Notes: a model not told the origin generated them from the letters alone. Positions 8,201 through 37,090 are shown, counted from the stretch's first letter. The stretch: 43,968 nt of DNA from a virus (IMGVR_UViG_3300045988_181214); one strand, 5' to 3'. Numbers and translations are program-made.

Positions 8201-8229
8201 AATTTGTAAGTTTATTATTATCTTTGTTG

Positions 8230-8237
8230 CAAATTTA
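8230..8237 (-). promoter_or_regulatory. -7 promoter element (TAaaTTTG)
   Basis: Minus-strand TAAATTTGCAAC ~30 nt upstream of ATG at 8200. Confidence 0.35.
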
Positions 8238-8422
8238 ATAATAATATTTGGAATATGCAAGTATTTTGTGTTAAATCTTTGATTTGTTTTGCGGTATGGT
8301 GGAAAAATATTATATTTGCAGTGGCAATTTAATTTTAGAAAGTATGAATAAAGATTTTGCTTTAATATTGGTAAACATAATATGCGCCTTAACGGCATTT
8401 GTTTGTATGATAATCACTATTG

Positions 8423-8779
8423 TTATTTCATTAGTGAGATTATAATAGTAATACACATAGATGCGATTGTAATAATCGTGCAAATGATATTGATATATTC
8501 TTTGTATTCTTTCAGAAGTGTCAGTCTCTCCTGTCTTCTCTTCTGTTTGTTATAGCCTTTCTTGGCAGCATTCTCCCCTTGTGGTGTCAGCTTATAATAA
8601 GCTTCTCCCCACTCATAAACAAGTCCCTCGTCTTGAAGTGATTGTAGAACATCGTATGGCTCAATGTCATATCCATACGTATCATTTATAGCACTGTGTA
8701 CATCGTCTTTGTTAGGACTACCTTCTAAGAACTGGCTTAAAATGAAATCTGCGATTTCTATTTGCTTTTTAGTCATCAT
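8423..8779 (-). CDS. Hypothetical protein with C-terminal transmembrane anchor
   Basis: 118 aa from tandem ATGs (track ORF starts at GTG 8863); C-terminal INIICTIITIASMCITIIISL hydrophobic helix. Confidence 0.5.
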   Translation of the reverse strand: MMTKKQIEIADFILSQFLEGSPNKDDVHSAINDTYGYDIEPYDVLQSLQDEGLVYEWGEAYYKLTPQGENAAKKGYNKQKRRQERLTLLKEYKEYINIICTIITIASMCITIIISLMK

Positions 8780-8793
8780 AATCAAATAAAAAC

Positions 8794-8831
8794 GGCTCGT
8801 GCATCGGGAGGGCAGTCCTTCAGCACGAGCC
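8794..8831 (-). terminator. Leader hairpin plus U-tract between promoter and start codon (terminator/attenuator-like)
   Basis: 9-bp stem GGCTCGTGC / GCACGAGCC, 20-nt loop; on the minus strand followed by GTTTTTATTTG just before ATGATG. Confidence 0.35.
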
Positions 8832-8914
8832 ATTAACAGCTGTATATCTTTATGTCTTGCCACTCATGAGACCTGCCCGAATCATGTTTGACATCATTGT
8901 CTTTAAATATGGTG

Positions 8915-8922
8915 CAAAGATA
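8915..8922 (-). promoter_or_regulatory. -7 promoter element (TAtcTTTG)
   Basis: Minus-strand TATCTTTGCACC between the spanin-like gene and the 8423-8779 gene. Confidence 0.4.
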
Positions 8923-8962
8923 GCGCTTTTATCTGAATGCACCAAATGATTTTACGAAAACT

Positions 8963-10784: not shown

Positions 10785-12359
10785 TCACGTGAATTTATAG
10801 AACTTCTTTTTGAATTTATTGTGAAGCTCTGCGACCACGGTGGAGAAGGGTAGCTCATCACGACAGAAGTCGTTGAGGGCTTGGTCTATCAAGATCTTGG
10901 AGCCTGTATAGAGGTAGTGCTCCAGAGGTTGCCATACCTCGGTGCCGTCTGGCTCCAGGTGGTCGATGATGCGATAGCGTAGGGAGAGGCGCTTCTTGGG
11001 CACCTCTTTGGTGACCATGTGGGTGGAGCCGTCCGGGGCGGTCTCCTCTTGCTGGATGGTCTCCTTCTCTATCACCGAGTCATCGACCTTGTAGTCTATC
11101 ACTTGAACGAGGAACTTGTTCTCGTCCTGACCCTCACGGCAGATGATGTCCTCGATGGACTGCTGCTGTGATTTCTCCATACCGTCAAAAGGCACGCGCG
11201 CACGGCGAGCCTTGACGAGTTTACCGAATCTTTCCATACCGATTTTCTTATATAAGTTTTTAGAGTTTGCGTGGATGCCCAGACCTAGGCGAGAGGCTGC
11301 CTTGAGCTGTATCTGGCGGTCTGTGAAGCCCGCCTTGCGTAAGTTGGCGATCTGTCTGCAGAGGTCGTGCTTGAACCGCTTGCGCAACAGGGCGTGGTCG
11401 GCGTAGATGATCTGACCGCATAAGTCGATGCCATCGCAGGTGCGGTGGATACCCCAAGACTTATTGATGGATAGGTGCCAGTCACGGGCGAGGTGCATCA
11501 CGGCAAGCTCTGCCATCAGCCTGAGGAACACCTTATCCTCGTGGAGGATGTAGATGTTGTCCATGAAGCGGTAATAATGGCGAAGACCTTGGCGGCAGAA
11601 GCGCTCGAACCTATCGTTGAGCGACTTCACTCCCCCGCATAGCAGTTGAGCTTGCTGCTGAGTGCGACAGGTAACGAGCATGTCGCTCACGTAGCGAGCC
11701 TGCCAGTAACGGAACTTGTCGGTGTCTTGGAGAATGTCGAAGCATCGGAGTGCCAGGTAATCGAAGCGGGCGAGGAAGAGCTGACCCAAGAGTTGGGCGA
11801 GCTTGACGCCGAGCACGATGCCTGGATTGAAGCTATCGACCACCTCGTCGATGAAGGCGAGGAGCTTGCGGTCTTTGATCTTGCGGCGATATTCACTTTT
11901 GAGAAGAGCGTGGTCTATGCTCTGAAAATAATGGTGAATATCCATGGGCAAGCAGTAGAAGGTATCTTGCTGTGGCGAGTTGAAGATGTCTCGCTTGACA
12001 AGATTATAGAAATAATGGGTGCCCTTGCCCTTGGAACCAGCCGGACTGTGGCTGTAGAGTGTCTTGCGAAGGTTATCCTCTACAGGTTGCAGGGCAGCGT
12101 GCTGGATGACGTGGTCGATAACGGGCAGCTTGTTGACTTGGCGATGTTTTGGATAGTCGATATCTTTGGCGACATAGGCTGAGGTATGCCAAGTTTGTTG
12201 GGTGTAAGCATCGAGCATGCGTCCGATGTTATGGTCTAGGTTTGCCTCGAATTTTTGGACCGCACGGCGAGACATCTTTTGTCGGGCGTAGTCATAGAAT
12301 GCCCGACGAAAGTTGTCTAGTGTCTCGACCTGTAGCGATATGTTGCCAAACCTTTTCAT
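10785..12359 (-). CDS. Reverse transcriptase (DGR-type), catalytic motif non-canonical
   Basis: 524 aa from first ATG (track ORF starts at GTG 12428); RT motif 2 SPAGSKGKGTHY, motif A LPMDIHHYFQSIDH, motif B-like GIVLGVKLAQLLGQLFLARFD; sits 208 bp downstream of the template repeat. Confidence 0.8.
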   Translation of the reverse strand: MKRFGNISLQVETLDNFRRAFYDYARQKMSRRAVQKFEANLDHNIGRMLDAYTQQTWHTSAYVAKDIDYPKHRQVNKLPVIDHVIQHAALQPVEDNLRKTLYSHSPAGSKGKGTHYFYNLVKRDIFNSPQQDTFYCLPMDIHHYFQSIDHALLKSEYRRKIKDRKLLAFIDEVVDSFNPGIVLGVKLAQLLGQLFLARFDYLALRCFDILQDTDKFRYWQARYVSDMLVTCRTQQQAQLLCGGVKSLNDRFERFCRQGLRHYYRFMDNIYILHEDKVFLRLMAELAVMHLARDWHLSINKSWGIHRTCDGIDLCGQIIYADHALLRKRFKHDLCRQIANLRKAGFTDRQIQLKAASRLGLGIHANSKNLYKKIGMERFGKLVKARRARVPFDGMEKSQQQSIEDIICREGQDENKFLVQVIDYKVDDSVIEKETIQQEETAPDGSTHMVTKEVPKKRLSLRYRIIDHLEPDGTEVWQPLEHYLYTGSKILIDQALNDFCRDELPFSTVVAELHNKFKKKFYKFT

Positions 12360-12567
12360 AAGCGGTGTAATGTCTGTGTTGAACGGTGTATAAACTGTGT
12401 ATAGTCTGAATCGTCTGCTTTTGTACACTTGATAACCTTCGACCGGATGACCGTGTTGTCATCATCTACCAGCTGTCTTATTAATGTGTATGTATCGCCA
12501 TGGGGCGAGGATTGACCCTGTAATCTCGAAGTGGGAGCAAACGACCCACGAAGAGATATGTCTGTAA

Positions 12568-12689
12568 GTTGAGGGCGGCGCCGTAGTTCACATTGGCATT
12601 CGAGACAGCATTGTTCACGTTGAGCGTTGAAAGACCGCATTGACCACCATTGTTAGCGTTAGCACCACGAAGGCAGACACGAAAACCGG
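12568..12689 (-). repeat. DGR template repeat (TR), noncoding
   Basis: 122 bp matching 12979-13100 at constant offset 411 with no indels; 9 mismatches, all at T on the plus strand (A on the transcribed strand); Asn (AAC)-rich in the target frame. Confidence 0.85.
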
Positions 12690-12723
12690 CACCTAGGGTC
12701 ACACCCTGGTATCATAACCGCCG

Positions 12724-12731
12724 CAAAGGTA
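12724..12731 (-). promoter_or_regulatory. -7 promoter element (TAccTTTG) upstream of TR-RT
   Basis: Minus-strand ATTTTTATTACCTTTGCGG ~35 nt upstream of the TR. Confidence 0.45.
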
Positions 12732-12927
12732 ATAAAAATAATCGGTATGGAAGCATGTCAAAGAGCTTTTTTGATGTTTTTATTGATATTTTTTTTGTCG
12801 CCGACCGCCACAGGCGGTAACTTAAGGCGAGCTACGCTCGCTGGGTGCTTCGGCTTCGCCGAGGGTGCTCAGGTCTCTTTTGCACACCCAGTAAACCGAT
12901 GCACACCCAGCAAACTGATGTAGTCTC

Positions 12928-14400
12928 TTAGGCCGCCTCGTAATACACGGGTTCAACGGACCACTCGGATGCTGCTTCGCAGAGGGCGGCGCCGCAGTTC
13001 ACATAGGCATTCGAGACAGCATTGTTCACGTCGAGCGTAGAAAGACCGCATTGACCACCATCGTAAGCGCTAGCACCACGAAGGCAGACACGAAAACCGG
13101 ATGTAGCACCAGACGTATTCCAGAAATAGCTAGTCCAGTAGGTTGACTCGGATGCGCCCGTAGCGGTCGGGAAGTTCTCTAGATGCTCCATCGAGAGCGT
13201 CTTGATATAGCCTTCGCCCTTGGTCGGCGAGGTGCTGTAAGCCACCATGCCATCGGTGGAACCTATCGTCCACGTGCCGTAGATGGACGGTGCCACGAGA
13301 TGGGTCACGGAAGTGTCCTCGTTGCAACGCACCTGCTCGTCATCCATGTGTCGCCACAATAAGCCGAAGCCATTTTTGTAGCCGAAGAAGGATGGTATCT
13401 TGGCGGTATAGACCACGGTGCCATCGTCTTTTTTGACCTCGTAGCTCGCCTCGCCGCAAGCGTCGCCAAGCTCGATGCCAGCCGACATCGGCACGACAGG
13501 GCGATAGCCGTTGTAACCACCCCAATCAGGCATCTGTGTCACGCCAGCGCCGAGACCACCCTGGTAGAGACCGTTGGCATCTTTTTGGCTGTTGACGGCA
13601 TCCTGGTCGTAGTGGGTGCCGAAGATGACCCCGAAGAGCACGGAGATGGCAGAGGTGTGGCGCATGGTGGTGCAGAGCCAGCCTGTGCCGTTTTTGCGGG
13701 CAGCAGCACGCCAGTATTCGGTAGTCTGGTTGGTGGCAGCCTTGCCCAGCATGGTGCGGTTGGTGTTATCTAACGTGGAGTCGTTGTTGCCGCCTCGGTA
13801 GTTTGTGCCCTCGTTGATGTAGCTCACCAGCTTGCCTGTGCTGCGCTCTAGCGTGGCGAAGCCAGCGGCGGAGATGCTGCCCACAGGTATCTTGTAATTG
13901 TACTCGCCTGGTATCGGCGTAGGGCTGACCATCTCGTAATGGAGTCTGCCCACGGTCTTGATGACCATGTACCACTCCTTGCCCCAGCCCCACTGGTAGT
14001 GCCCCTCTGAGCCATCGAGCTTGGCTGTCTCGCCGGTGGCATACTTGTGGTGGTCTTTGGAGTCGAGCTTGCGACGGGAGTGGTCATTCTTGACCAGATA
14101 ACAGCCCAGACCCAGCTCCGTTGGTAGGGTCTGCAGTAACTCTAGCGAGCCCACATAAGTGGCGGCTTTAGGGGTTGCATTGTCGAGGTTCCACACTCGA
14201 CCACACCAAGGATGCTGTCCCATTTGGACGGCGCTTTTGAGCGACATCTGCTCAGACCTGCCGGATTTTTTGTCGAAGACCTCGACAATCTTGTCAGTGG
14301 CGCTCATGTCTGACTGTGGGAGGTCGTCAACCTGTTGACCTCCATCGAAAGCGGCTATGATAGCCTTGAGCTTACTCTCTTCTTCTGATGTTAATGCCAT
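12928..14400 (-). CDS. DGR target protein: tail-fibre / receptor-binding protein with C-terminal variable region
   Basis: 490 aa from ATG (track ORF extends to 14448); VR occupies the last ~40 codons; lies within the tail-fibre gene block. Confidence 0.75.
   Translation of the reverse strand: MALTSEEESKLKAIIAAFDGGQQVDDLPQSDMSATDKIVEVFDKKSGRSEQMSLKSAVQMGQHPWCGRVWNLDNATPKAATYVGSLELLQTLPTELGLGCYLVKNDHSRRKLDSKDHHKYATGETAKLDGSEGHYQWGWGKEWYMVIKTVGRLHYEMVSPTPIPGEYNYKIPVGSISAAGFATLERSTGKLVSYINEGTNYRGGNNDSTLDNTNRTMLGKAATNQTTEYWRAAARKNGTGWLCTTMRHTSAISVLFGVIFGTHYDQDAVNSQKDANGLYQGGLGAGVTQMPDWGGYNGYRPVVPMSAGIELGDACGEASYEVKKDDGTVVYTAKIPSFFGYKNGFGLLWRHMDDEQVRCNEDTSVTHLVAPSIYGTWTIGSTDGMVAYSTSPTKGEGYIKTLSMEHLENFPTATGASESTYWTSYFWNTSGATSGFRVCLRGASAYDGGQCGLSTLDVNNAVSNAYVNCGAALCEAASEWSVEPVYYEAA
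12979..13100 (-). repeat. DGR variable repeat (VR) at the 3' end of the target gene
   Basis: Encodes the C-terminal ...GFRVCLRGASAYDGGQCGLSTLDVNNAVSNAYVNCGAALC of the target; matches the TR except at template-adenine positions; GC-rich 3' end GCGGCGCCGCCC (IMH-like). Confidence 0.85.
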
Positions 14401-14422
14401 AATAAAAATTATATTTAATCGA

Positions 14423-15187
14423 TTAAACAATGCGTAATTTATCACCAACTTTTCTAAGCTTGCCCGATGCCGACAGGCGAAGGCGAGGCTGGCGCACGGT
14501 GATGCTGACCTCTTGCCAGAGCGGTGTGTTGGCGGTGGGGATGACCCAGAACTTGGTGGTGCCCTCGCCCTTGATGATGAGGTTGCCGCTTGGGTCTGCC
14601 ACGAGCGAGTCGCCCTCGGCTCGCTGGAAGAGCACGCTCTGAGGGAGGTAGCTCGGCAGGATCTGCACGGCGATGCGCAGAGCCACCTTGTTGCGTAGGC
14701 TTATCTCGGGGAGATAGGTCAGGTTCATGCGAGCTGGCGCGATGAAGCCTGTGGTTATCTGAGCGGCGAGACCATCCATCTGCGCTATCTTGGCATCGGC
14801 TCGCTTGGATGCCGCGTCAGCCTCTGCAGCCTTGGTCTCTGCCAAGGCTGCCTGTGATGCTGCAGCCTCGCCCTGCTCGCCAGCCGCCTTGGCTGCGCTC
14901 TGGGCGAGGTTAGCCGCCTTGTTGGCATCGTCGGCCGCACCCTGCGCTCTGACGGTCGGTGTCTTGTCGAGCCACAAGCGCCACTTGGCGTTGGTATCTG
15001 AAGGAGTCGTCGTGTTGCCATCCTCTAGGGAGGCGAAGACTCCTGACGATGTGTGAACGATGTCGCCCTCGTCGTAGCCCTTGACGGTCTGGCCATCCTC
15101 ATCTTGATAGGAGTAGCCCGACTGCCAGGTGCCCTGGTCGGTGAAGGCGACATTGCCCACGATAATGATGTTTGTGTTATCTGCCAT
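14423..15187 (-). CDS. Tail fibre-associated protein (Ala/Gln-rich coiled region)
   Basis: 254-aa ORF, ATG start; central AAKAAGEQGEAAASQAALAETKAAEADAASKRADAKIA repeat-like segment. Confidence 0.5.
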   Translation of the reverse strand: MADNTNIIIVGNVAFTDQGTWQSGYSYQDEDGQTVKGYDEGDIVHTSSGVFASLEDGNTTTPSDTNAKWRLWLDKTPTVRAQGAADDANKAANLAQSAAKAAGEQGEAAASQAALAETKAAEADAASKRADAKIAQMDGLAAQITTGFIAPARMNLTYLPEISLRNKVALRIAVQILPSYLPQSVLFQRAEGDSLVADPSGNLIIKGEGTTKFWVIPTANTPLWQEVSITVRQPRLRLSASGKLRKVGDKLRIV

Positions 15188-16659: not shown

Positions 16660-19600
16660 TTAATATGCGTGGTTCAGCTTGCGCGCTGTGTATTTGGTCG
16701 TGTAGTCACTCACCTTGTTGCCCATGGTTGAGTTATAGACCAGCAGGAACGTCGCACTGTCGCCCTGTCCCATCTCTATGTAATCTTTGTTGCCGCAGTT
16801 CTCATCGAGAATCAAAGGTAACTCCTCTTTGTTCCATGCGTAGGAATCGCTTTTGTCTTTGATCTTGTTGCGCCCATAAATGAAGAAGTTTGTCGTGCCT
16901 GGCTCAGCGACCACCGTAAATGTCACGGCGAAGTTGGTAGATGAGCCACAGCCTAATGCGCTGCGCACCTCAGACAGTGTTGGCAGCGTTATGCCGCTTG
17001 ACGAGACGTAGCTGTAGATGAGCCAGACGTTATTCTCAGAAATCTTGGCATAGCCATTATAGATGGTGTTTTTTGTGCTAAGCGCATATCTGCTATACTT
17101 ATATCCACCTATCCATCCATTGAGTACGCCATTGCCAGCACCTGTGAAAGCAAAATTATAGGCACCGTTTTTAGCCGAGAGTATGGCTGCGATATTGTAA
17201 CCAAGCCCCCACCAGTCGCTGCTGTCCTCATTTTCGAATCGAGCCACCGCACGCTGTCCTGATGCCGCTGGTAGTACGTTGCCACCGATGCCCGCAAAGC
17301 ATTTATGGGTATCGTTGCGAAATATGATGTATGCATCATTGGTAAATGGGTCGTTTGTCAGACCCGTGCCCTGGATAGTGAATCCAGCGATCTTGCCCGC
17401 CAATGCCTCCATGGAGCCATCTTTGTTGATTTTGAAATTGCTGTTGGCCGTGACCACACCGTTAAGGTTGATTTGGTCTGCCGTGATGGTGGCAGAGGAG
17501 ATGCCGTTGGCAATCATTGTCTTGATGGTAGCCTCGGATAGAATCTTGCCATCGACACCCTCGATTTTTGTAGTCAGCGCATTGTAGTCTGCCGTCACAA
17601 GCAAGCCACCTTTGTTTTTGAGCGTGCCATCGGCATTGAATCGCTCGCTCATCAGGGCGTTGTAGTCAGCGGTGGTGATAAGATAGCTCGTATCTTTGAG
17701 CTTGCCATTGGCATCGAAACGAGCAACTGCCGAAGACCACGAATCGGCGTTTTGACTGACCAACGATATAGTCGGACCATAATCGTTGCGTATGTCTGAG
17801 CCTACGCTGTCGGCGTGTCTCCTGGCTTCGGCAACGGAACTGTTGAGGGCATTGTAGTTGTCAGACATAGTCCCTTGCAAAGTGTTTTTGGCTGCATTCA
17901 GCTCGTCTTTTGTCGCAGCCTTGCCCACCGTGGTATTGATGCCATTGACCGTTATCTTTAACTCAGCGAGTGCCGCCTTGGTGCCGTTGGCAGTATTGGT
18001 GACGCTCTCGACACGTGCAGTGATGCTGTCGATGTCGGTGTAGATGCCAGAAATTTTCTCGTTTGTGCTATCCTGCCAGGTGTTGATGAGGTCGATGCGA
18101 CCTGCCTCTATCTCTATTCTTGACGAGAGTGTTGTGTTGAGTTCGCCGTATCTCTTATCGACATATAGGCGTATTGCCTCTTTCTCAGCGTCCAGCTCGA
18201 TGCCGAGCTGAGTTGTGGTACCATTGACCTTGTCGATGTTTTGTCCCAGCAGCTTGATGTTTTTGGCCGTCTGAAGTATTTGTGTCGAGACGGTCTTGCT
18301 CAGGTTGTCGAGCGGCTCGTCGGTGATGGTGAGCAGCGCGACGTAGATGTCTCCTGTATATCGGAGCACGAAGTCGCCGGTGCCATTCCACTTGCCATTT
18401 AGCTCTACCGTCTGCCACTCTGCCGAGTATGGCACGCTGACGCTCTGGGCTGACAGGTCGTTGGTCTTGCCTTCGACAGCCTTGCAACCCTCGAAGCCAA
18501 AGGTGAGGGTGCCAGCAGTCTTGGCGTAGATGCGAGCACTTATATATAAGGTGTCTTGCACCTCGGTGTAGTCATCGCCAGTGGTGTTCATGCCATCCTC
18601 GCCTTTTTCTGCCGATGGCTGGGTATATTCCTTGTGGGTACCGGGTTTGCGGATGAGATCATTGGCTTGTTTGATGCCGCTGTCCTGTATGTGCAGCATG
18701 TTGCGACCCTCGTTGTTGTCGATGCTCACTCGGTGGTTGCCACTCACGGTGGCGGCACCATTGACCATGACAGGTAAGCCATTGGCATCGACCCAGAACT
18801 GGGACTCGTCTGTATCGTCGATGGTCCAGCCATCAATGAGCTGCTCATCGTTATAGCCTATCGCCGTCAGAAACTGACCGTTATGGAGGTAGTTGTTCTC
18901 CTCTGTCGCCTCGTAGGAGGTCTGTGCGAAGCGGGTGGCGAACTGGTTCTGCAGCATCTGTATTTTGGTGTCGATGCTCTCACCTGTGCGGCGGAGCACG
19001 AAGTCGCCCGTGGCGTAGAGGTTCTGCAGGAACTCACCGAAGCCTGATAGTGCACCGAAGAGTGGATGGGTGATGCCCCGTAAGTTGCCGAGGCGACCTT
19101 TGAGCGCATTGTCTGGGTCTGTCTTGAGACCATAGATGATGTCCATGTAGGGCGTATCGCTGCCCACAGTCATCATCTGTATGATGCCCTTGCGGTCGGG
19201 GTCGGTGAGGTTGTCGACCCTAACAAAAGTGTCTCGCTTGGTGATGAGCTGCTCTGCGGTGGCACCCTCCATCGATGAGGTGAAGTTCTTGAACTTGACC
19301 CATGCTAGCATATCCTCGCCACTGCCCTCGCTGCCCACCTCTGTCACGATAAGCTCGTATCGCTTGGTGACATAGTGATTGTTTTCGGTGGAGGGCATGC
19401 CATTGTACTGCTGCACCATCACGTAGTCATCCTTGCGGAATGGGTTGTACATCCTGCCCTCGTGGGTGTCGAGATAGACCCTGCCTGTCTCTGGATCGTA
19501 GTGGTCAACCTCTAGCATCGCCGTGAAGATGCGGTTGTCATTCTCGCCCAAGAGTTGGGAGATAATCATCTCGAAGATGCGCATGGTACCACGCACGATG

Positions 19601-20139
19601 AGATTATCGAGCTCTAGACCATACCTATTCTCTTGCACCCCGGCAGCGTTGGTCGTGGGGTTGTTGGCGAGTCGCCAGCCCTTGCCATCGAGGAAGCCCG
19701 AGACGAAGTCGGGAGAGCCTATGGTATCGTCAAAACGAGCAGCGCCCTTGACGTGCAGCGCACTGACTGTCGCCAAGCCCCACGCCAGGATCTCTTCGAT
19801 GCAAAGCTTGTAACCCCCATTCTCTTTTGTGGCGAGGCAGAAGCCTTTTTGACCAGCCTCGGAGTAGTCATCAGTGGCGATGGAGTGGGCGATGATGTCG
19901 CCCTCTTTGGAGAAAGAAAAGAGGTTGCCTATCTTGATGCCCTTGAGAAAGGTGATGAGCCCATGGGCTGTATCGTCGTTGATGGCGGAGAGTTTATCGT
20001 TGTCAGCAGAGGAAGCATAGTCGAGCAGGGACAGGAAGGCGTTGCCAATGCGGCTTGCCGTATTGGCGTGCTTGACTCTCTCGTCACGGATGCCCTCGAA
20101 AGCCTCTCTGATTTTGTTGATGTCTTTATTTTCTGCCAT
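16660..20139 (-). CDS. Large tail fibre / host-specificity protein
   Basis: 1159-aa ORF; internal repeated segments (LITTADYNALMSERFNADGTL / LLVTADYNALTTKIEGVDG); Thr/Asn/Gly-rich fibre-like regions. Confidence 0.6.
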   Translation of the reverse strand: MAENKDINKIREAFEGIRDERVKHANTASRIGNAFLSLLDYASSADNDKLSAINDDTAHGLITFLKGIKIGNLFSFSKEGDIIAHSIATDDYSEAGQKGFCLATKENGGYKLCIEEILAWGLATVSALHVKGAARFDDTIGSPDFVSGFLDGKGWRLANNPTTNAAGVQENRYGLELDNLIVRGTMRIFEMIISQLLGENDNRIFTAMLEVDHYDPETGRVYLDTHEGRMYNPFRKDDYVMVQQYNGMPSTENNHYVTKRYELIVTEVGSEGSGEDMLAWVKFKNFTSSMEGATAEQLITKRDTFVRVDNLTDPDRKGIIQMMTVGSDTPYMDIIYGLKTDPDNALKGRLGNLRGITHPLFGALSGFGEFLQNLYATGDFVLRRTGESIDTKIQMLQNQFATRFAQTSYEATEENNYLHNGQFLTAIGYNDEQLIDGWTIDDTDESQFWVDANGLPVMVNGAATVSGNHRVSIDNNEGRNMLHIQDSGIKQANDLIRKPGTHKEYTQPSAEKGEDGMNTTGDDYTEVQDTLYISARIYAKTAGTLTFGFEGCKAVEGKTNDLSAQSVSVPYSAEWQTVELNGKWNGTGDFVLRYTGDIYVALLTITDEPLDNLSKTVSTQILQTAKNIKLLGQNIDKVNGTTTQLGIELDAEKEAIRLYVDKRYGELNTTLSSRIEIEAGRIDLINTWQDSTNEKISGIYTDIDSITARVESVTNTANGTKAALAELKITVNGINTTVGKAATKDELNAAKNTLQGTMSDNYNALNSSVAEARRHADSVGSDIRNDYGPTISLVSQNADSWSSAVARFDANGKLKDTSYLITTADYNALMSERFNADGTLKNKGGLLVTADYNALTTKIEGVDGKILSEATIKTMIANGISSATITADQINLNGVVTANSNFKINKDGSMEALAGKIAGFTIQGTGLTNDPFTNDAYIIFRNDTHKCFAGIGGNVLPAASGQRAVARFENEDSSDWWGLGYNIAAILSAKNGAYNFAFTGAGNGVLNGWIGGYKYSRYALSTKNTIYNGYAKISENNVWLIYSYVSSSGITLPTLSEVRSALGCGSSTNFAVTFTVVAEPGTTNFFIYGRNKIKDKSDSYAWNKEELPLILDENCGNKDYIEMGQGDSATFLLVYNSTMGNKVSDYTTKYTARKLNHAY

Positions 20140-25984: not shown

Positions 25985-26250
25985 GCCTCACCTCCTTTCG
26001 CCTCCAGTGCTATGTTGATGGTCTTGAAGAGCTTGCTCATGTGGTCGAAGTTGTTGAGCATGAGGAGCACTTTGTCGGCACCGCCGAGGTCTTCGACACA
26101 GTTGGTCACCACCTCGTCTGAGATAAGCACCTTTTTGACTTGCTCAAGGTACTCGATGAAGTAGCTGAGCTGGTTGACATCCATCATTTCTACGAGCGCA
26201 TTCCAGACCTCTGCTGTCATGTGCATATTTGTTGCGTTGTTTGTGTTCAT
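25981..26250 (-). CDS. Hypothetical small protein
   Basis: 89-aa ORF; ATGA overlaps on both sides. Confidence 0.45.
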   Translation of the reverse strand: MNTNNATNMHMTAEVWNALVEMMDVNQLSYFIEYLEQVKKVLISDEVVTNCVEDLGGADKVLLMLNNFDHMSKLFKTINIALEAKGGEA

Positions 26251-26612
26251 GCTACGACTCCTCCCATCAGATAACCACCAAAGAAAACCACTGCCATGAA
26301 GGCTGCGAAGCCTAGTGTGGCCTTGACCACCTCGCCGTAGGTCACGCTCTCGTCGCAGAGTGCGGTGAAGGTCTCGCTCTCGGTCTTGGCGAGCTTCTTG
26401 ATTTCACACTTGAGGGTATTGATACCCTCCTCTACGCTGATGCCTGCAGGTCTCACCTGCGCATCACTAATTAAAATTGAATTCTGCATAATTGCCATCT
26501 TATAACCATTATAGACCGATCTTGATGTATAAATACAATGGTGGCGGTCACATTCACCGTTGGTTATAAGATGGTAGCTTTCCCAGCGAAGGTCAAGTAT
26601 CTTACGGATCAT
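26247..26612 (-). CDS. Hypothetical membrane protein
   Basis: 121-aa ORF; C-terminal hydrophobic helix LGFAAFMAVVFFGGYLMGGVVA. Confidence 0.45.
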   Translation of the reverse strand: MIRKILDLRWESYHLITNGECDRHHCIYTSRSVYNGYKMAIMQNSILISDAQVRPAGISVEEGINTLKCEIKKLAKTESETFTALCDESVTYGEVVKATLGFAAFMAVVFFGGYLMGGVVA

Positions 26613-26751
26613 GCAACCGCCATATTGAAAAGACCTTTTTCCCGCTGCCGGGAAAATGATACTTTATAGGCATAAAAAAAGCCCACGGCGTGAAGCCTAG
26701 GCGAAACAGTCGCCATCGCTGAGTAGATTACTACTATCTTATAACCGATGG

Positions 26752-26759
26752 CAAAAGTA
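26752..26759 (-). promoter_or_regulatory. -7 promoter element (TActTTTG) with long structured leader
   Basis: Minus-strand GTACTTTTGCC ~140 nt upstream of ATG 26612; leader contains hairpin TTTTCCCG-ctgc-CGGGAAAA (26645-26668). Confidence 0.3.
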
Positions 26760-26851
26760 CGAAGAATAATTGGAACCGCCAAAAAAAAAGCGAGAAATTT
26801 TGAAATAAATGACTTTTTTATGTTTTAGAGCATAAAACAAGGGGGTGAGGA

Positions 26852-26885
26852 ACGAAAAAGCCCCGGATGCTCACGCACCCGAGGC
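26852..26885 (-). terminator. Intrinsic terminator after the 26892-27284 gene
   Basis: Stem GCCTCGG / CCGGGGC (one G-U), then on the minus strand TTTTTCGTT. Confidence 0.45.
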
Positions 26886-26891
26886 TGACAG

Positions 26892-27284
26892 TTATTTTTG
26901 GAAATAAACTTTTAAAGGGATTGAATTCTCCACATTGCCAATTTTGAAAGAGAACTGATAGTTGCCCTCTGCAGGGAACTGGAGGTCGGAGAACTCAAAG
27001 ATGAAGTTGCTGAAGAGAAACTCATCTGAAGGGTGTGGCTCAATCTTGGAATTGATGGGCTGGCCAAGAATCATCTTGCCAGTGCTCATCTCTGTAACCT
27101 CTGCCGAGAACTCTTGCTGAAGTTTGCTTTCCTCGCTGTTCATCTTAACTCTCGCTACCATGAAGAGGTTGTTCTTAGGCAGCGGTGCTTTTCTTACCAC
27201 ATAGTGGTCAAAAGTGCCCACGATGGTAAGTTTGCCGTCATTATCTTGTGCAAAGTCACACAATGCAAGAATATCTATGTTCAT
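26892..27284 (-). CDS. Hypothetical protein (AT-rich cargo cassette, gene 3)
   Basis: 130-aa ORF, ATGA overlap with the upstream gene. Confidence 0.5.
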   Translation of the reverse strand: MNIDILALCDFAQDNDGKLTIVGTFDHYVVRKAPLPKNNLFMVARVKMNSEESKLQQEFSAEVTEMSTGKMILGQPINSKIEPHPSDEFLFSNFIFEFSDLQFPAEGNYQFSFKIGNVENSIPLKVYFQK

Positions 27285-27721
27285 TTTATATGTCCTTTAA
27301 TGTTAGACTCGATAGCCGAGTGTTTGAAAAGTTTTTTATAATTGTCGAATGAATATTTGAGTTTGCTCACCGTGCGCTTGTTTGTGCTCACTAGGTTGGC
27401 TCCATGTCTGCCAGAGATGCCTTCCTTGGTATTGAACTTCAGAGAATTTCTTTTGGAGTCAACCCAAAGCCTGATGGCATCGCCTTGTATCTTGTCACCC
27501 ACATTGCCATGGACGTTGAGATCTTCTCGTATTTTCTTGTCCTCTTCGTTGAGCTCAAGAGCTTCGGTGATTTCTACGGAACTATTTCGGTCTAGTTCGT
27601 ATAATGTCATCTTTTTGCCCGTGATAGGTTCCTCTTTGAGTCCCTTCCACTCAGCCCTTCTGGCAATGACATCAGCTTTTTTGCCCTCTATGATTTCACC
27701 TTCTTTGATATATATAGCCAT
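27281..27721 (-). CDS. Hypothetical protein (AT-rich cargo cassette, gene 2)
   Basis: 146-aa ORF, Lys/Glu-rich. Confidence 0.5.
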   Translation of the reverse strand: MAIYIKEGEIIEGKKADVIARRAEWKGLKEEPITGKKMTLYELDRNSSVEITEALELNEEDKKIREDLNVHGNVGDKIQGDAIRLWVDSKRNSLKFNTKEGISGRHGANLVSTNKRTVSKLKYSFDNYKKLFKHSAIESNIKGHIK

Positions 27722-28149
27722 TATTGGATACTTTTTTGCATTGATTTTTCACTGAAAGAGAATACCTCAGCCATATCATCAGGCGAGGTGATGCTCATGA
27801 GCGATGGGCTGACCTCAAGAGCCACCTCAATGTCTTCAATGGAAGCATCTTTATCTTGTTTGATGATGTACTTATCCTCATGCTCTTCAATCTCTTTATC
27901 AAACTCTTCTTCGGTAATATTGCCGTCAAGCATTTCGCAATATAGTTTGAAGTAGTTGCGCTCACGTGTGCGGTTGTTAACGGCACGAGTCATCAACTCC
28001 TTGAGTCTGTCGGCAGTACTAATGTTGAAAAAGTTAGCCTTATTGGTAACACCAGCGAATGCAACCTTGCCAGTACCTTTGTCTTGTATAGCCACAACAG
28101 GGCTGCCATCAGTTTGGTATGTTGTATATATAGTCGTTGTATTGCTCAT
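27721..28149 (-). CDS. Hypothetical protein (AT-rich cargo cassette, gene 1)
   Basis: 142-aa ORF, ATG start 31 nt downstream of promoter motif. Confidence 0.5.
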   Translation of the reverse strand: MSNTTTIYTTYQTDGSPVVAIQDKGTGKVAFAGVTNKANFFNISTADRLKELMTRAVNNRTRERNYFKLYCEMLDGNITEEEFDKEIEEHEDKYIIKQDKDASIEDIEVALEVSPSLMSITSPDDMAEVFSFSEKSMQKSIQ

Positions 28150-28179
28150 AATTCACATCCTGTTTATATTAACACGGTG

Positions 28180-28187
28180 CAAAGATA
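28180..28187 (-). promoter_or_regulatory. -7 promoter element (TAtcTTTG)
   Basis: Minus-strand CGTATCTTTGCACC upstream of ATG 28149. Confidence 0.45.
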
Positions 28188-28320
28188 CGGTTATTTTTTG
28201 TAAATCGCAAATTTAATGATAAATTTAACAACAAAAATTGCAATAAAGATTGGAAAATGGTATATAAAGAATGCTCGACCGCTTTTTGGCTCTTGCCAGA
28301 CGCTTTCGCCGCAGGCGAAA

Positions 28321-28357
28321 ATTTTTGGAAAATGAGGGGGAAGGTTTTAGCCTTCCC
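28321..28357 (-). terminator. Intrinsic terminator after the RadC-like gene
   Basis: Perfect 8-bp stem GGGGAAGG / CCTTCCCC with 6-nt loop, followed on the minus strand by CTCATTTTCC. Confidence 0.5.
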
Positions 28358-28377
28358 CTTACCTTATTATATATATA

Positions 28378-29061
28378 TTATAGCTTTCCTTTGTCGTGGT
28401 AGCTGTAGAAGCCATCCTCAGCCAAGATGATATGGTCCATCAAGAAAAGTCTCATCACCTCGCACGCCTTGGCTATCTTCTGCGTGAGCATATCGTCCGC
28501 CTTGCTCGGCTGCGTGCTGTTCGATGGGTGGTTGTGTGCCACGGCGATGATGGTTGCATTGTTGAGCACGGCTTCTTTCATTATCAGTCGAACGTCCACC
28601 GCTGTCTCGGTGATGCCTCCCTCGCTGAGCTTGGTGCACTTTATCAGCCTAAAGTTTTGGTTCATCAGCACTACCCAAAAGCCCTCTGTCTCATTGCAGC
28701 CTATCATTGGGCGAAGATAGTTGTAGAGTGCCAGGCTGCTGCCTAGGTCGGTGTTTCTCGCTACCTTTTCCATTTGGTAGCGTCTGCCTAGCTCGATGGC
28801 TGCCTGTAGGGCTATCGCCTTGCAGTCTCCAATTCCTGGTACCACTTCCAGGTCTTCTATTCTCGCCTTGCCGATGTTGCGAAGCGAGTTGCCCATGATG
28901 TTATAAATCTGTCGTGCCTGCTCTTGGCTGTCCTTGGTACCTGCCCCTCTGTTGATTACCAAAGAAATCAAGTCAACGTTGGTAAGGGTGTCGAAACCTT
29001 GGTTATAGGCTCTGTACTGCGGTCTCTCCTCCATACAAAGATTGTTATAATTTTGTCTCAT
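28378..29061 (-). CDS. radC: RadC-like JAB/MPN-domain protein
   Basis: 227 aa; N-terminal helix-hairpin-helix-like LEVVPGIGDCKAIALQAAIELG; JAB metal-binding motif AVAHNHPSNSTQPSKADD. Confidence 0.75.
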   Translation of the reverse strand: MRQNYNNLCMEERPQYRAYNQGFDTLTNVDLISLVINRGAGTKDSQEQARQIYNIMGNSLRNIGKARIEDLEVVPGIGDCKAIALQAAIELGRRYQMEKVARNTDLGSSLALYNYLRPMIGCNETEGFWVVLMNQNFRLIKCTKLSEGGITETAVDVRLIMKEAVLNNATIIAVAHNHPSNSTQPSKADDMLTQKIAKACEVMRLFLMDHIILAEDGFYSYHDKGKL

Positions 29062-29076
29062 ATCTTTTGTTATTTG

Positions 29077-29601
29077 TTAGTTATACATTCTCTTTGTTCT
29101 CGCTAGGAACATCGCTCCCATCACTTGTGCGCCACATTCGGCTAGCTCGTTGGCGAACTCTCGGGCGGTCGCTCCGCTCGTCACCACGTCGTCGAAGATG
29201 ATGACTTTCTTTCCGCTGAAGTACTCTCTATCGAGTGCCACTCTGTAGTCGAAGCTCTCACACACTCTGTCTGTGCTGAAGTGCTTGGCTGTGCGCTCTC
29301 CATAGATGGAAATGTGCTCGTTTCCGTTCTGTACCTTTGCGCCTTGGCTCACCTTTTGGGCGAAGCGAGAAAAGCGCTTGGTGTACTTCTTTGAGTTGGC
29401 TGCTGGAGCGCAAACCATCACGAAGTCGCTGGCTTTGTCGCCATAGGTGTTGACGAAAGAGCTGACCACCATATCGGCAGCTGCGTCTGTCGCCCACTGC
29501 TTTCCATCCTTGAAGGCAAAGATGAAGTTTCTCACTTGCTCTGCTTGTGCTGAGCGGTCGAAACGCTTGGAGCTGTACTCGTAATAATTGAAAGTTTTCA
29601 T
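29077..29601 (-). CDS. ComF-like phosphoribosyltransferase-domain protein
   Basis: 174 aa; PRTase signature KKVIIFDDVVTSGATAREFA near the C-terminus; no N-terminal Cys-rich zinc finger. Confidence 0.65.
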   Translation of the reverse strand: MKTFNYYEYSSKRFDRSAQAEQVRNFIFAFKDGKQWATDAAADMVVSSFVNTYGDKASDFVMVCAPAANSKKYTKRFSRFAQKVSQGAKVQNGNEHISIYGERTAKHFSTDRVCESFDYRVALDREYFSGKKVIIFDDVVTSGATAREFANELAECGAQVMGAMFLARTKRMYN

Positions 29602-29870
29602 ACGCTTAAAATTTTTATTCTAGCCAGAGGGAGGAAGGAGCTTTTTTATTTGAACTCGTCTTTGCCTGCCCGTCTGAGAGTTTTTTTTATTCTGTCCGTC
29701 GGTCGTTTTTGTCGCTTTTTACGGTGCGATGCAGACGAGCGGAGAAGAGGTATGAAAGCCAAGGAATTTTGCAAAAAGTTTATGGAAAACCGTCATCTCT
29801 GATTGCGGAAGGCTGCCGAAAAGTTTTTGGAAAATAGATTTATCGGTACTTGGTGCATGCCGTCCGCCGT

Positions 29871-29878
29871 ACCTTTGC
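29871..29878 (+). promoter_or_regulatory. Plus-strand -7 promoter element (TAccTTTG) inside an ORF-poor island
   Basis: gTACCTTTGCAC, same 12-mer as the tRNA promoter; points into 29880-30499, which has no convincing ORF. Confidence 0.35.
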
Positions 29879-30198
29879 ACCCGAAAAAGAGATAATGACC
29901 GATGGATAACCGATAAAGGGAAAAGCTCTCGGACAGGAAAAGCGGGCAAAGAAAAGGCTCTGCCTTACCTTGGTGGTTAAGCCTTAGCGACGTTTGAGCG
30001 CCATCACGGTCACTACCGCTTGAAAATTCGCAAATTTTAACCATAGCGTATGAAATGAAAGATGGAAAATTTGCGTCATCAAAAACACCATGTTTTTCAG
30101 ACTTTAGGAGGAAAAACATACCTTGGAGCGATGAAATCGCAGCATTTGGCATGCTTCGACCCCGAGGTTGAAGATGCCGAATGTGTCGTTTTGCGACA

Positions 30199-30240
30199 GG
30201 TTTTCCACACCCACGGATTGGAAAACCCCGATTTTATCGT
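30199..30240 (+). terminator. Plus-strand hairpin plus U-tract (candidate terminator of a small RNA)
   Basis: Perfect 8-bp stem GGTTTTCC / GGAAAACC with 13-nt loop, followed by CCGATTTTATCG. Confidence 0.3.
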
Positions 30241-30499
30241 GGTTTTAGGGATTCAAAGGGAAAATAATTCCCCTTTGTCGGCGATAGCACCCCCCACCGC
30301 CCTACGCCCGAGCGCGCCTTCCGCCCCCTTGGAAAAGACGGAATATGTAAAAGACCGTTAACGTTTTTGTAGGAATGTAAAAAGCCAAAAGGCACGAAAA
30401 AAGGGAACACGCTTCGCAGCGCACTCCCCTTATCGGCGGTCAAGCAAGAATGCCAGCCACCTAACTTATATAAGAATCGTACTATCTAAAGAAATCAAA

Positions 30500-32101
30500 C
30501 TATAGCATGGAACCCGTGGCGATGTAGCCATCAGCCTGAGGGTATTTCTCCATGCCAATCATGAGCGTGTCGTAGGCATCGGAGCCATCGGTGCGAGCCT
30601 CCAACTTATCCTCCTCGGTCTCAGCCAGCTTCTCGCCTCGCTTATCCTTCTTGCCGTTGTAGACCCCGGCCAGGCGGATGGAGATGAGCAGGTCTTCGTT
30701 GTTCTCGCTGTTGATCATCGAGCGATGCTCAGCCTTGCCGAGGAACATGCGGTTGAGCAGAAGCATCTTTTCGAGATGTCCCATCGGGTTGCCCAGATAG
30801 ACCTCGTTGACATACCAGCCATGGTCGGTGAGGTAGTCGGTGATGAAGGTATGGAAGTCATCGTTCATCAGGGCGTAGTTGTTGCCCACGAAGGTGGAGT
30901 CGTAGTAGAAGTTGACCTCTTTGCACCGATGGTACTCATAGTACTGCATGAACTTGTCGAGCAGGGCTGGCAGCTTCTCCTCATACTTCACGAAGATGCT
31001 CTTGAGGCAGCGTGCCTCGCCCCGCAGGTTGTCTTGTCCGACGGCTATCCAGTTGATGAGGGCGTTGGCATCGAAGGCGATGCAGAGCGGACGGTCGGGG
31101 TCAACGTCGGCATCCATTCTGGAATCTACATGCTTGAGCTTGTCGATGTCGTAGCCCAAGCCATCGAGGTAGGCGAGGTTGGGCGCCGTGTATAGGTTGG
31201 CATCCCTGAGGTTGGAGTAGAAGCCATCGAGCGAGATGGAAGGTCGCTTGCACATGATGGAGGTCTGGAAGGTGAGGGCAGGGAGGTCTCGCTTCATCTG
31301 CTTGATGAACTCCATGCCGAGCACCTCGATGTTATAGACCGATGAGTACTCTTTATAGAAGAGTGCCTTGGAGCGCAGTTGCGCCAGGAGCTGACCAATC
31401 TCTCGGAGTCGGCGCTGGGCATAGCCTGAGACATGGCCCGAGGTCTTGATGCGGTTGCGTATGTCATACTCCTCTACCACGAGCGAGGCGATGGCGTCGA
31501 TGAGCAGCTGGTCGCAGTCTTTCTTGTAGTTGAGGAACCAGGAGCCCTTCTTGGTCACGGGCATATCAGAGGTGATGAGCATGCCATGGTGGTAGTAGTG
31601 CTGGCCGAAGAGGTTGACGTTGCCTCGATTGGCAGGGAAGGTCTCGTCTTTGAGCTGTTCGAAGTTGATGAACTTCGCCTCGTCGATGTCGAGGTAGTCG
31701 AGCGAGAGGGAGTTGGAGGTACCCTTGCGGTCTTGCGAGATGATGGTACCGATGGAGCCGTTATAGAAAGAGATGGTGTTCTCCCAGTTGCTGGGCGGTA
31801 TGACCGGGTCGGGCCATCCCAGTTTTTTGGGAGGCTTGACCCCGATGAGATAATGCTTGCCCCGGTGGAAGCCCCATCGCTCCCAGTGCTGAAGCATCGA
31901 CGGTATGGTGTTGGTGAGGCATCGCTTGGTGTTGGCGGATACGAAGCCGCCGTTGCTGCCAGGCATGCGCTGCATGTTGCGCAGGTTGAAGGTGGCGTGG
32001 AGAATGCTCTTGCCGATGCCTCGACCGCCCACGACCACGTTGTCGCGGGCGGAGATGAGGTTGACCTCCATCTGGGCTGGGTTGAGATATTGATCTATCA
32101 T
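30500..32101 (-). CDS. terL: Terminase large subunit
   Basis: 533 aa; N-terminal Walker A VVVGGRGIGKS, Walker B-like LDYLDIDEA, Asp-rich C-terminal nuclease-like half. Confidence 0.8.
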   Translation of the reverse strand: MIDQYLNPAQMEVNLISARDNVVVGGRGIGKSILHATFNLRNMQRMPGSNGGFVSANTKRCLTNTIPSMLQHWERWGFHRGKHYLIGVKPPKKLGWPDPVIPPSNWENTISFYNGSIGTIISQDRKGTSNSLSLDYLDIDEAKFINFEQLKDETFPANRGNVNLFGQHYYHHGMLITSDMPVTKKGSWFLNYKKDCDQLLIDAIASLVVEEYDIRNRIKTSGHVSGYAQRRLREIGQLLAQLRSKALFYKEYSSVYNIEVLGMEFIKQMKRDLPALTFQTSIMCKRPSISLDGFYSNLRDANLYTAPNLAYLDGLGYDIDKLKHVDSRMDADVDPDRPLCIAFDANALINWIAVGQDNLRGEARCLKSIFVKYEEKLPALLDKFMQYYEYHRCKEVNFYYDSTFVGNNYALMNDDFHTFITDYLTDHGWYVNEVYLGNPMGHLEKMLLLNRMFLGKAEHRSMINSENNEDLLISIRLAGVYNGKKDKRGEKLAETEEDKLEARTDGSDAYDTLMIGMEKYPQADGYIATGSML

Positions 32102-36064: not shown

Positions 36065-37090
36065 TTATGCAAACTGATTTAAAACATCCAACACTTGATC
36101 TGAGCAGAAATCCTCGACCTTGGTGTCATCGACAGCAGTGTGCGTGTCGCCACCAGGCTCTCCCTCCAGATCCTTCACTTTATCCTTCAGGTCATCTCTC
36201 TCCTTTTCGAGATTCTTGACCTTAGTCTCTAACTCCTTCTTCTCGTCCTTGACCTTCTGAAGCTCTGTGTCTTTGTCGGTCACGGCCTTGGAGTCGGCAG
36301 CGATCTTATCCTCCAGTTTCTGCATCTGCTCCTGTGAGATTGTGCAGTTCTTTGCGGAATCTTCTGCCTCAATGCCCTCGATATTGAGGACATTGTTGAT
36401 GTGAGTCCATTTTTTGATCATATTAATAATTTTATTTTGTGATTTATCTTTGCCGAATAATCGGTCGATGATGCTTGGCTTTTTATCATACCAGGAGTTA
36501 ACAACCTCTGGGAGAACAGGAAGGTTGTTGTACTTGATGAAGTCTTGCGTCTGCTCGGTGATGTCGGCAGGCTTGCCATCCATGGCTTCATCGACGAGAC
36601 CCAGTTCGATGCACTCATCGACGGTGTGCCACATCGCTTCGGACATCACCTTGACGATGTCCTCGTGCTTCTTGCCCGAGCGATCGCAGTAAACGTTGGC
36701 GATGATGTTGTCGATTTTCTGCTGGTTCTCTTGCTGTTTTTGAAGTTGCTCGATGAGCGAGCCTATCTGCTCCTCGTTGAGCGCAGACCACACAAACTGC
36801 TCGGTAGAGCACTTGTGTACCAGGAGCAAGCTATATTTGCTCATGCGAATCTTGCTGGCACCCATCGCACAGATGGTGGCAGCAGAGGCAGAGAAGCCCG
36901 CCTGGAAGTCAACGGTCACGTCGCCATGGGACTTGAACATCTGACAGATGGCGAGACCTGCGGAGACCTCGCCACCCAAGGAGTCGATGGCAACATCGAC
37001 GTGCTTATCTTTGTTGGCCTTAAGAACATCGCGAACCATGAGCTTGGTCCACGAGCCAATATATCCTGTGATAGAAATTTGGTACTTCAT
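36065..37090 (-). CDS. ClpP-family prohead protease with C-terminal coiled-coil (scaffold-like) domain
   Basis: IDSLGGEVSAGLAI, catalytic Ser in GFSASAA, His in LVHKC, Asp in GLVDEAM align with ClpP; C-terminal ~100 aa is a Lys/Glu/Asp-rich coiled-coil. Confidence 0.8.
   Translation of the reverse strand: MKYQISITGYIGSWTKLMVRDVLKANKDKHVDVAIDSLGGEVSAGLAICQMFKSHGDVTVDFQAGFSASAATICAMGASKIRMSKYSLLLVHKCSTEQFVWSALNEEQIGSLIEQLQKQQENQQKIDNIIANVYCDRSGKKHEDIVKVMSEAMWHTVDECIELGLVDEAMDGKPADITEQTQDFIKYNNLPVLPEVVNSWYDKKPSIIDRLFGKDKSQNKIINMIKKWTHINNVLNIEGIEAEDSAKNCTISQEQMQKLEDKIAADSKAVTDKDTELQKVKDEKKELETKVKNLEKERDDLKDKVKDLEGEPGGDTHTAVDDTKVEDFCSDQVLDVLNQFA

Follow-up and report, generated by a model that had tools for sequence, protein, structure and literature searches.

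A mobile three-gene moron in a cargo hot spot of a Segatella copri prophage

Several described kinds of element come close to the locus presented here. Juhala, Hendrix and colleagues reportedly defined the phage 'morons' in 2000, in the lambdoid phages HK97 and HK022, and the anti-CRISPR and anti-CRISPR-associated (acr-aca) operons of Mu-like Pseudomonas phages are well known as groups of small genes with their own promoter. Prophages and satellites of the P2/P4 kind carry hot spots of antiviral systems, from which the hot-spot concept used below is taken (Rousset et al. 2022, PMC9122126). The subject of this analysis is a cassette of three small open reading frames (ORF1, ORF2 and ORF3; together, the trio) at positions 26892-28187 of the viral sequence IMGVR_UViG_3300045988_181214. 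The window, by which the whole stretch of 43,968 nt is meant, is a Bacteroidota prophage, of a kind very common in the gut, whose host is Segatella (Prevotella) copri. By its sequence the region is a textbook phage moron: a self-standing, predicted transcription unit set into the hypervariable cargo slot of an S. copri prophage. The cassette is independent, AT-rich and horizontally acquired, and has its own promoter and terminator.

Organisation and mobility of the cassette

The cassette and its immediate setting comprise the following features.

27721-28149, minus strand: ORF1, 142 amino acids
27281-27721, minus strand: ORF2, 146 amino acids
26892-27284, minus strand: ORF3, 130 amino acids
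28180-28211, minus strand: Bacteroidota-type promoter (-33 TTTG at 28208-28211, 20-nt spacer, -7 TATCTTTG at 28180-28187)
26850-26886, minus strand: intrinsic terminator of the cassette (12-bp GC-rich stem, hairpin 26859-26886, followed by UUUUUCGUU)
28337-28358, minus strand: upstream hairpin, a bidirectional terminator of radC (-15.3 kcal/mol)
26800-28283: exchangeable module B, with homology breakpoints at ~28175-28283 (left) and ~26800-26857 (right)
26250-30450: hypervariable cargo hot spot between the large terminase (TerL) gene and the conserved small and tail genes, holding a phosphoribosyltransferase (PRTase)-radC module, the trio and variable small ORFs

The initial annotation had proposed three small, translationally coupled ORFs bracketed by a promoter and a terminator of their own, and this arrangement was confirmed, on the minus strand: ORF1 and ORF2 overlap by 1 nt (TAATG), ORF2 and ORF3 by 4 nt (ATGA). 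Promoter and terminator calls were made in silico. The promoter element placed at 28180 proved to be accompanied by a -33 TTTG and a 20-nt spacer, and the complete TTTG-N20-TATCTTTG element lies ~30 nt 5' of the ORF1 ATG; the bipartite pattern occurs nine times in the window against 0.65 expected. The terminator downstream of ORF3 was recovered by both hairpin scanning and folding (-23.3 kcal/mol, with a U-run after the stem), and the two hairpins would insulate the trio on both sides, including from the upstream radC gene. Across 41 distinct copies of the cassette, a TAnnTTTG motif occurs 15-120 nt 5' of ORF1 in 31 (background 5%), and a hairpin with a T-run lies within 150 nt 3' of ORF3 in 30. 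The promoter had also been called private, which is only partly the case: it is present at the cassette, but a cassette-less relative (L070) retains the TATCTTTGCACC promoter upstream of a different small gene, such that the promoter in this phage family is part of the insertion slot and not of the cassette alone. Directly downstream of the cassette terminator, the stretch 26247-26783 (minus strand) holds a further full bipartite promoter (26752-26783) ahead of an ORF of 121 amino acids that ends in a hydrophobic tail at its C-terminus. Identity of this ORF among relatives ranges from only 37% to 99%, and its small neighbouring ORFs also vary between related phages.

The base composition of the cassette sets it apart from the remainder of the prophage. 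Its GC content of 0.420 (window mean, 0.504) falls among the lowest 6% of equal-sized segments, and GC content at third codon positions (GC3) is 0.455, 0.476 and 0.550 for ORF1, ORF2 and ORF3, respectively, against 0.675 ± 0.056 for core genes (z = -4.0, -3.6 and -2.3). The G statistic for synonymous codon usage reaches 108.7 for the cassette, compared with 55.5 ± 14 when core genes are drawn in random triples. The GC and codon-usage comparison, set beforehand as a check, thus separates the cassette clearly from the core, and in all nine carriers examined the trio falls 3-16 GC points under its surroundings. The claim that the cassette is AT-richer than the neighbouring structural genes therefore holds for the computed AT-richness but not for the neighbours, as the genes that adjoin it are not structural: radC and the PRTase gene lie upstream and small variable ORFs downstream, with the TerL and tail genes further out.

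Comparison with related phages places the cassette in a slot of exchangeable cargo. Breakpoints were located by blastn of seven related loci (L070, L075, L094, L076, L112, L119 and L078) against the window, and sharp breaks at ~30021, ~28175-28283 and ~26800-26857 delimit two independently swappable modules. Relatives were drawn from 72 IMG/VR loci retrieved through their terminase and scored for neighbouring genes, and cargo states were counted where TerL was at least 92% identical and enough downstream sequence was available. The PRTase-radC module and the trio occur together in 23 loci, the trio alone in 6, PRTase-radC alone in ~10 and neither in ~14. The trio is accordingly present in ~29 of ~53 close relatives, and this patchiness, which the initial annotation had asked to be checked, shows that it is not universally conserved. 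As each module is found without the other, dependence of the trio on the adjacent PRTase-radC genes was ruled out; a sister clade at 52% TerL identity carries PRTase-radC and never the trio. Phages with neither module fill the slot with a SocA/Panacea antitoxin (match at 1.4e-17) and a small transmembrane protein, DUF2335, DUF5053, a HicB-like protein or a lipoprotein. A screen of the slot cargo returned the SocA/Panacea match and matches of the PRTase to ShosT and PsyrT models, but no complete known defence or toxin-antitoxin (TA) system.

The second swappable module (breakpoints ~30021 and ~28252) deserves a description of its own. It consists of a ComF-like PRTase gene followed by radC, with a JAB domain (28378-29601, minus strand), and the PRTase matches the PADLOC models for ShosT at 1.6e-9 and PsyrT at 9e-9; the pair may be a ShosTA-like TA or defence pair in which RadC replaces a DprA-like partner. 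Between the TerL and PRTase genes lies a spacer of ~900 bp (29602-30499) that contains no convincing gene, though a plus-strand ORF of 99 amino acids (30062-30361) is called in many assemblies, and no Rfam family at the gathering threshold. The left junction of the hot spot (~30021) falls inside this spacer, ~500 bp of which (~29600-30100) is ~100% identical between lineages with structural genes that are 12-40% different.

The history of the trio is decoupled from that of the phage backbone. Relative to a divergent lineage (L002, L003 and L010), the structural genes are 58-89% identical and the block from ~30400 to ~26880 is ~100% identical, while in a further locus (L006) only the trio is 99-100% identical and PRTase and radC are 79-92% identical. 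The cassette is ~100% identical between backbones that are 12-40% apart, and in some pairs its synonymous divergence (dS) is 0.01-0.03 against 0.6-0.8 for TerL. The opposite is also seen, with some phages of similar TerL carrying trio alleles of saturated synonymous divergence (in one pair, dS of 1.4-2.3 for the trio and 0.6-0.8 for TerL). The recent acquisition suspected in the initial annotation is backed by this near-complete identity across divergent backbones, by the patchy presence and by the other positions that the trio occupies elsewhere.

Those positions are diverse. The trio is found just 5' of a prohead protease gene (L025-27), after holin and amidase genes and adjoining an integrase (L028-30), after an ORF of 1980 amino acids on a Parabacteroides contig (L035), within a tail module, where the tape-measure gene follows it (L140-143), and after an ORF of 1163 amino acids (L144); a distant trio lies beside hicAB (L065). 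In two loci with no recognisable phage (L176 and L181) it is located between an integrase and an AAA_25 gene, and in others it adjoins a MobA/VirD2 relaxase (L187) or an hlyIII gene (L185). On one bacterial contig (L190, 4687-6685) the trio sits between tatA/tatC and prfC, preceded only by an ORF of 64 amino acids and a DUF5053-like gene, with no integrase or phage gene recognised beside it; this copy could represent a minimal islet, or else what is left of an element that has decayed. As these contexts show, the trio travels as an intact unit. Its carriers include Bacteroidales phages unrelated to one another, elements of the integrative or mobilizable kind and at least one chromosomal islet. 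Exact copies of the proteins are spread very widely through human-gut assemblies, occurring in thousands of collection blocks and on at least 1000 contigs each, and no homologue was found among the deposited phage genomes of INPHARED or the plasmids of PLSDB.

Gene content and proteins of the trio

The composition of the trio is fixed. An ORF2 homologue is flanked by an ORF1 homologue on its 5' side and a DUF6941 gene on its 3' side, with constant strand and order, in 53 of 53 loci and down to 37% ORF2 identity. These loci, all with enough sequence on both sides, come from a metagenome scan with a shallow ORF2 alignment and from individual look-ups; further ORF1-ORF2-DUF6941 cases occur in viral contigs, and among the loci examined ORF2 was never seen without its two partners. 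Ratios of nonsynonymous to synonymous divergence (dN/dS) are 0.05-0.07 for ORF1 and ORF3 (0.06 for ORF1), similar to the terminase, and point to strong purifying selection on the trio. Divergence is fastest in ORF3: where ORF2 identity is 45-60%, the mean identities are 46% for ORF1, 52% for ORF2 and 32% for ORF3.

The three proteins are acidic, basic and acidic in the order of their genes. ORF1 (isoelectric point (pI) 4.6, net charge -10) has a variable, beta-rich N-terminus followed by an invariant A-x-NNRTRERNYF motif with eleven consecutive residues, an acidic helix and a conserved C-terminal DDMAxLFSFS..S..K. Codons within the invariant motif differ between copies, which indicates that the constraint acts on the protein and rules out the motif as a nucleic-acid element. 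ORF1 has no family match in Pfam, PHROGs, PADLOC or NCBIfam and no PDB match in a sequence-profile search; by eye, its C-terminus is loosely helix-turn-helix (HTH)-like. The same family libraries recovered no HTH family for ORF1, ORF2 or ORF3.

ORF2 is a basic protein (pI 9.4) rich in beta structure. Its residues R21, D76 and H106 are near-invariant, and it carries the motifs YELDRN, KEG and RHGA. An exhaustive hidden Markov model search of 1.84 billion cluster representatives defines a rare orphan family of only 107 clusters at E <=1e-3, nearly all of whose members are single-domain proteins of 130-150 amino acids, and no Pfam family is found in the cluster members except for two probably spurious matches in longer proteins. 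ORF3 is a full-length DUF6941 protein (PF22091; 75.5 bits against a cut-off of 27, E = 6e-21, residues 5-126 on model positions 2-124/125). Its AlphaFold2 model (mean predicted local distance difference test score 88) is an immunoglobulin (Ig)-like beta-sandwich, while a profile search of PDB sequences gave no match. Conservation in ORF3 is concentrated in the N-terminal hairpin (DFAQDNxGKLTIVGTF); the first 25 residues (DIxxLCDxAQxxxGKLxIxGTF) show almost no variation, whereas the remainder of the protein is highly variable.

No transmembrane segment or signal peptide was predicted in ORF1, ORF2 or ORF3, and all three are soluble cytoplasmic proteins; hhalign detected no relation among their families. 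The remote-homology and structure predictions called for in the initial annotation have thus been informative for ORF3, now an Ig-like DUF6941 protein, but have left ORF1 and ORF2 without a family and ORF2 without a fold match.

Candidate functions of the trio

We regard it as slightly better than an even bet that the trio forms a conflict system of three proteins, not described before and borne by mobile elements of the Bacteroidales, whether anti-phage or anti-defence, in which the central component, ORF2, has a fold unmatched among solved (PDB) or predicted viral (BFVD) structures and the Ig-like DUF6941 subunit provides rapidly diversifying target recognition. The reading favoured here, with a probability of roughly 40%, is a defence or TA-like abortive module borne by mobile genetic elements. 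The three soluble cytoplasmic proteins would then act jointly as one conflict system. ORF2, basic, of unmatched fold and with conserved arginine, aspartate and histidine residues, would be the effector, and ORF1, acidic and encoded just 5' in a gene overlapping ORF2, its neutraliser or regulator; the DUF6941 protein, with its conserved N-terminal hairpin and hypervariable Ig-like body, would serve as the recognition or specificity subunit. Its own housekeeping-type promoter, together with the flanking terminators, would allow expression in the lysogen independent of the late operon.

Four observations favour a defence or TA-like module. Defence systems as a rule have a strictly fixed multi-gene architecture, which anti-defence loci rarely show, and the strict three-gene synteny fits multi-component systems somewhat better than typical anti-defence genes. 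The overlapping ORF1-ORF2 arrangement, acidic and then basic, resembles an antitoxin-toxin pair. The slot is shared with TA genes, and elsewhere the cassette is found as cargo beside an integrase or forms a chromosomal islet. Lastly, a hypervariable Ig-like body on a conserved anchor has the look of a recognition module.

A number of results weigh against this assignment. Searches of PADLOC, Pfam, NCBIfam and PHROGs matched the trio to no family of defence proteins, toxins or antitoxins and recovered only DUF6941, for ORF3; ORF2 has no PDB match by either shallow or deep sequence profiles and no fold match in PDB or BFVD; and the ORF3 model has only generic Ig-fold structural neighbours. With no family homology, no fold match for ORF2 and a generic fold for ORF3, the roles proposed above for the individual proteins are purely inferential. 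Neighbours in the divergent loci give only sporadic matches to known defence models, and a position adjacent to a relaxase or within a structural operon is also typical of anti-defence genes. Further, solo ORF1-like genes (33-34% identical, with the same NNRTRERN[YF] motif; L237 4958-5416 and L242-L246 ~4930-5414) are found next to tape-measure genes, each an AT-rich moron of one gene that has no ORF2 or DUF6941 gene with it, which extends the ORF1 family beyond the trio, and DUF6941 genes stand alone in Chitinophagaceae chromosomes. As both are found alone, the two parts can evidently work independently.

The main rival, somewhat unlikely in our estimate, is an anti-defence operon, in which the trio, or ORF1 with two helpers, would be made early after infection or transfer and inhibit host immunity such as CRISPR-Cas, restriction or nucleotide signalling; an acidic mimic or sponge could be supplied by ORF1, and a binder by the Ig-like DUF6941 protein. 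Small proteins with no assigned family, encoded by an AT-rich cassette with a strong promoter of its own within the structural region, are in keeping with this, and anti-CRISPR loci of Mu-like phages have a comparable placement. So are the apparently recent spread across phage lineages, the near restriction of carriers to phages and mobile elements (including the relaxase-adjacent copy), the solo ORF1-like morons of other phages and the strongly acidic character of ORF1 (net charge -10). Gene content and order are, however, strictly fixed over deep divergence, unlike the shuffled loci of known anti-defence genes, and no HTH regulator of the Aca type was detected in the trio. Strong purifying selection and the conserved, enzyme-like polar residues of ORF2 also speak against an anti-defence operon, as do the copy between tatC and prfC (L190), where a DUF5053-like ORF is the only recognised element gene, and the TA-like nature of other cargo in the same slot.

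That sharing of the slot with TA modules can also be read in favour of an addiction or stabilisation module, or of lysogenic-conversion or regulatory cargo with no direct part in phage conflict. The trio could be a tripartite TA that only stabilises its carrier, or its proteins could alter host physiology. Overlapping neighbours that encode an acidic and then a basic protein agree with such a role, and the cassette resides on many kinds of integrated elements, with exact proteins that are very widespread in human-gut assemblies. We consider it doubtful, as the trio contains no known toxin or antitoxin domain and no secreted or membrane component to act on the cell surface or environment, and the hypervariable body of DUF6941 suggests a changing target. 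Optional virion or assembly accessory proteins, such as an Ig-like decoration protein with chaperones, are very improbable. Among phages that are near-identical and share their structural genes, about half lack the trio. Its promoter and terminator are its own, its composition is foreign, and it occurs in integrase, relaxase and chromosomal contexts that contain no virion genes; DUF6941 genes, moreover, stand alone in non-phage chromosomes. Superinfection exclusion was listed by the initial annotation, beside anti-defence, as a candidate; its membrane-level form was rejected, since the absence of transmembrane segments and signal peptides argues against the classical version of this function.

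Prophage setting and comparison with known systems

The host is S. copri: in complete genomes, exact copies of the trio proteins carry the label 'hypothetical protein [Segatella copri]', and in virome assemblies they are entered under 'Caudoviricetes sp.' The isolate with genome CP134816.1 is one such S. copri lysogen. Nearly all genes of the window are on the minus strand, the tRNA-Met/integrase end apart, and the landmarks of the prophage are as follows.

83-158: tRNA-Met
275-1438: tyrosine integrase gene
30500-32101: large terminase (TerL) gene, with a GGRGIGKS Walker A motif
36065-37090: ClpP-type prohead protease gene

The window also encodes an Amidase_2 endolysin and two giant, tape-measure-like genes (3428-7774 and 16660-20139, minus strand). 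One is an ORF of 1448 amino acids with a PhageMin_Tail domain; the other, of 1159 amino acids, is coiled-coil-rich and tape-measure-like, and is swapped in related phages for a pair of 499 and 383 amino acids or a gene of ~1300 amino acids. A complete diversity-generating retroelement (DGR) occupies 10785-14448 (minus strand). Its reverse transcriptase, an ORF of 547 amino acids (10785-12428), matches PDB chain 8ub7 ('Reverse transcriptase') at 1.9e-10 and, more weakly, the group-II-intron-type reverse transcriptase 6ar1, and an Rfam RT-17 RNA is found at 12411-12512 (59.9 bits). The template repeat (12571-12689) and the variable repeat (12982-13100) differ at seven positions, all seven at template adenines. 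The variable repeat lies in the 3' end of a gene of 506 amino acids (12928-14448), and ORF3 was ruled out as a target of the DGR. A second AT-rich, moron-like island is present at 7859-8946 (minus strand; GC 0.35-0.38, GC3 0.36), with a private bipartite promoter (8915-8946) and a protein of 146 amino acids with a C-terminal transmembrane helix that, by eye, is like the small membrane-anchored cargo in the TerL-tail slot of cassette-less relatives.

S. copri is a dominant bacterium of the human gut and genetically hard to work with, and competition between its phages and prophages is little understood. The cassette is a portable 1.3-kb unit of three proteins annotated only as hypothetical, and its exchange between phage lineages outpaces the divergence of the backbone. 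In the Proteobacteria, properties of this kind (portability, mobility and a slot shared with TA genes) have successfully predicted new defence and anti-defence systems, and the trio is a reasonable candidate for experimental testing. Should it prove active, it would be a new system from an under-sampled phylum and the first functional handle on DUF6941, and the TerL-tail slot of this phage family would be worth mining for more cargo; should it prove inactive, it would be an ordinary moron. If the trio is indeed a conflict system, it would rank among the most widespread accessory functions of S. copri prophages.

Morons in the cargo hot spots of prophages are a well-known kind of element. The trio itself is undescribed: for two of its three families there is no database entry and the third is only a DUF, and neither the literature searched nor the deposited phage and plasmid records contain the trio. 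A full-text literature search returned nothing on DUF6941/PF22091 and nothing specific from the literature on S. copri prophages or Bacteroidales defence. ORF3 shares the DFAQDN..KLTIVGTF motif with stand-alone DUF6941 members, and differs from the Chitinophagaceae members examined, which are solitary chromosomal genes, in that the DUF6941 gene of the trio is always coupled to ORF1 and ORF2.

The likeness to TA systems of type II or tripartite kind rests on small overlapping genes, acidic and then basic (pI 4.6 and 9.4, 1-nt overlap), on mobile carriers and on a locus shared with bona fide TA genes (Panacea, HicAB). The trio differs from them in having no recognisable toxin, antitoxin or DNA-binding domain, and its members, at 130-146 amino acids, are larger than usual TA proteins; to our knowledge, no known TA system contains an Ig-like DUF6941 protein. 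With the acr-aca operons the cassette has in common a small-gene operon with its own promoter in the morphogenesis region, patchy among relatives and with no family annotation. Unlike them, it has no Aca-type HTH protein, its gene content is fixed (53 of 53 loci) and not shuffled, and it also occurs outside phages.

The morons of HK97 and HK022 are matched more closely. Like them, the cassette separates segments that lie side by side in related phages, with homology breaking and then resuming, and it has a host-type promoter, an intrinsic terminator, a distinct composition and dispensability. It departs from them as a strictly co-inherited operon of three genes instead of a single gene, and in its promoter. 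This belongs to the Bacteroidota sigma-ABfr type (TTTG / TAnnTTTG) and, in this phage family, forms part of the slot junction and serves alternative cargo in relatives. The slot itself resembles a defence hot spot in its conserved flanks, fixed position and hypervariable cargo in four states plus the alternative cargos. As in the P2/P4 hot spots, AT-rich cargo at a fixed site with conserved core flanks is exchanged between relatives and includes TA-like modules; the trio has no homology to any system of those hot spots, and its carrier is an S. copri siphovirus-like prophage with a DGR.

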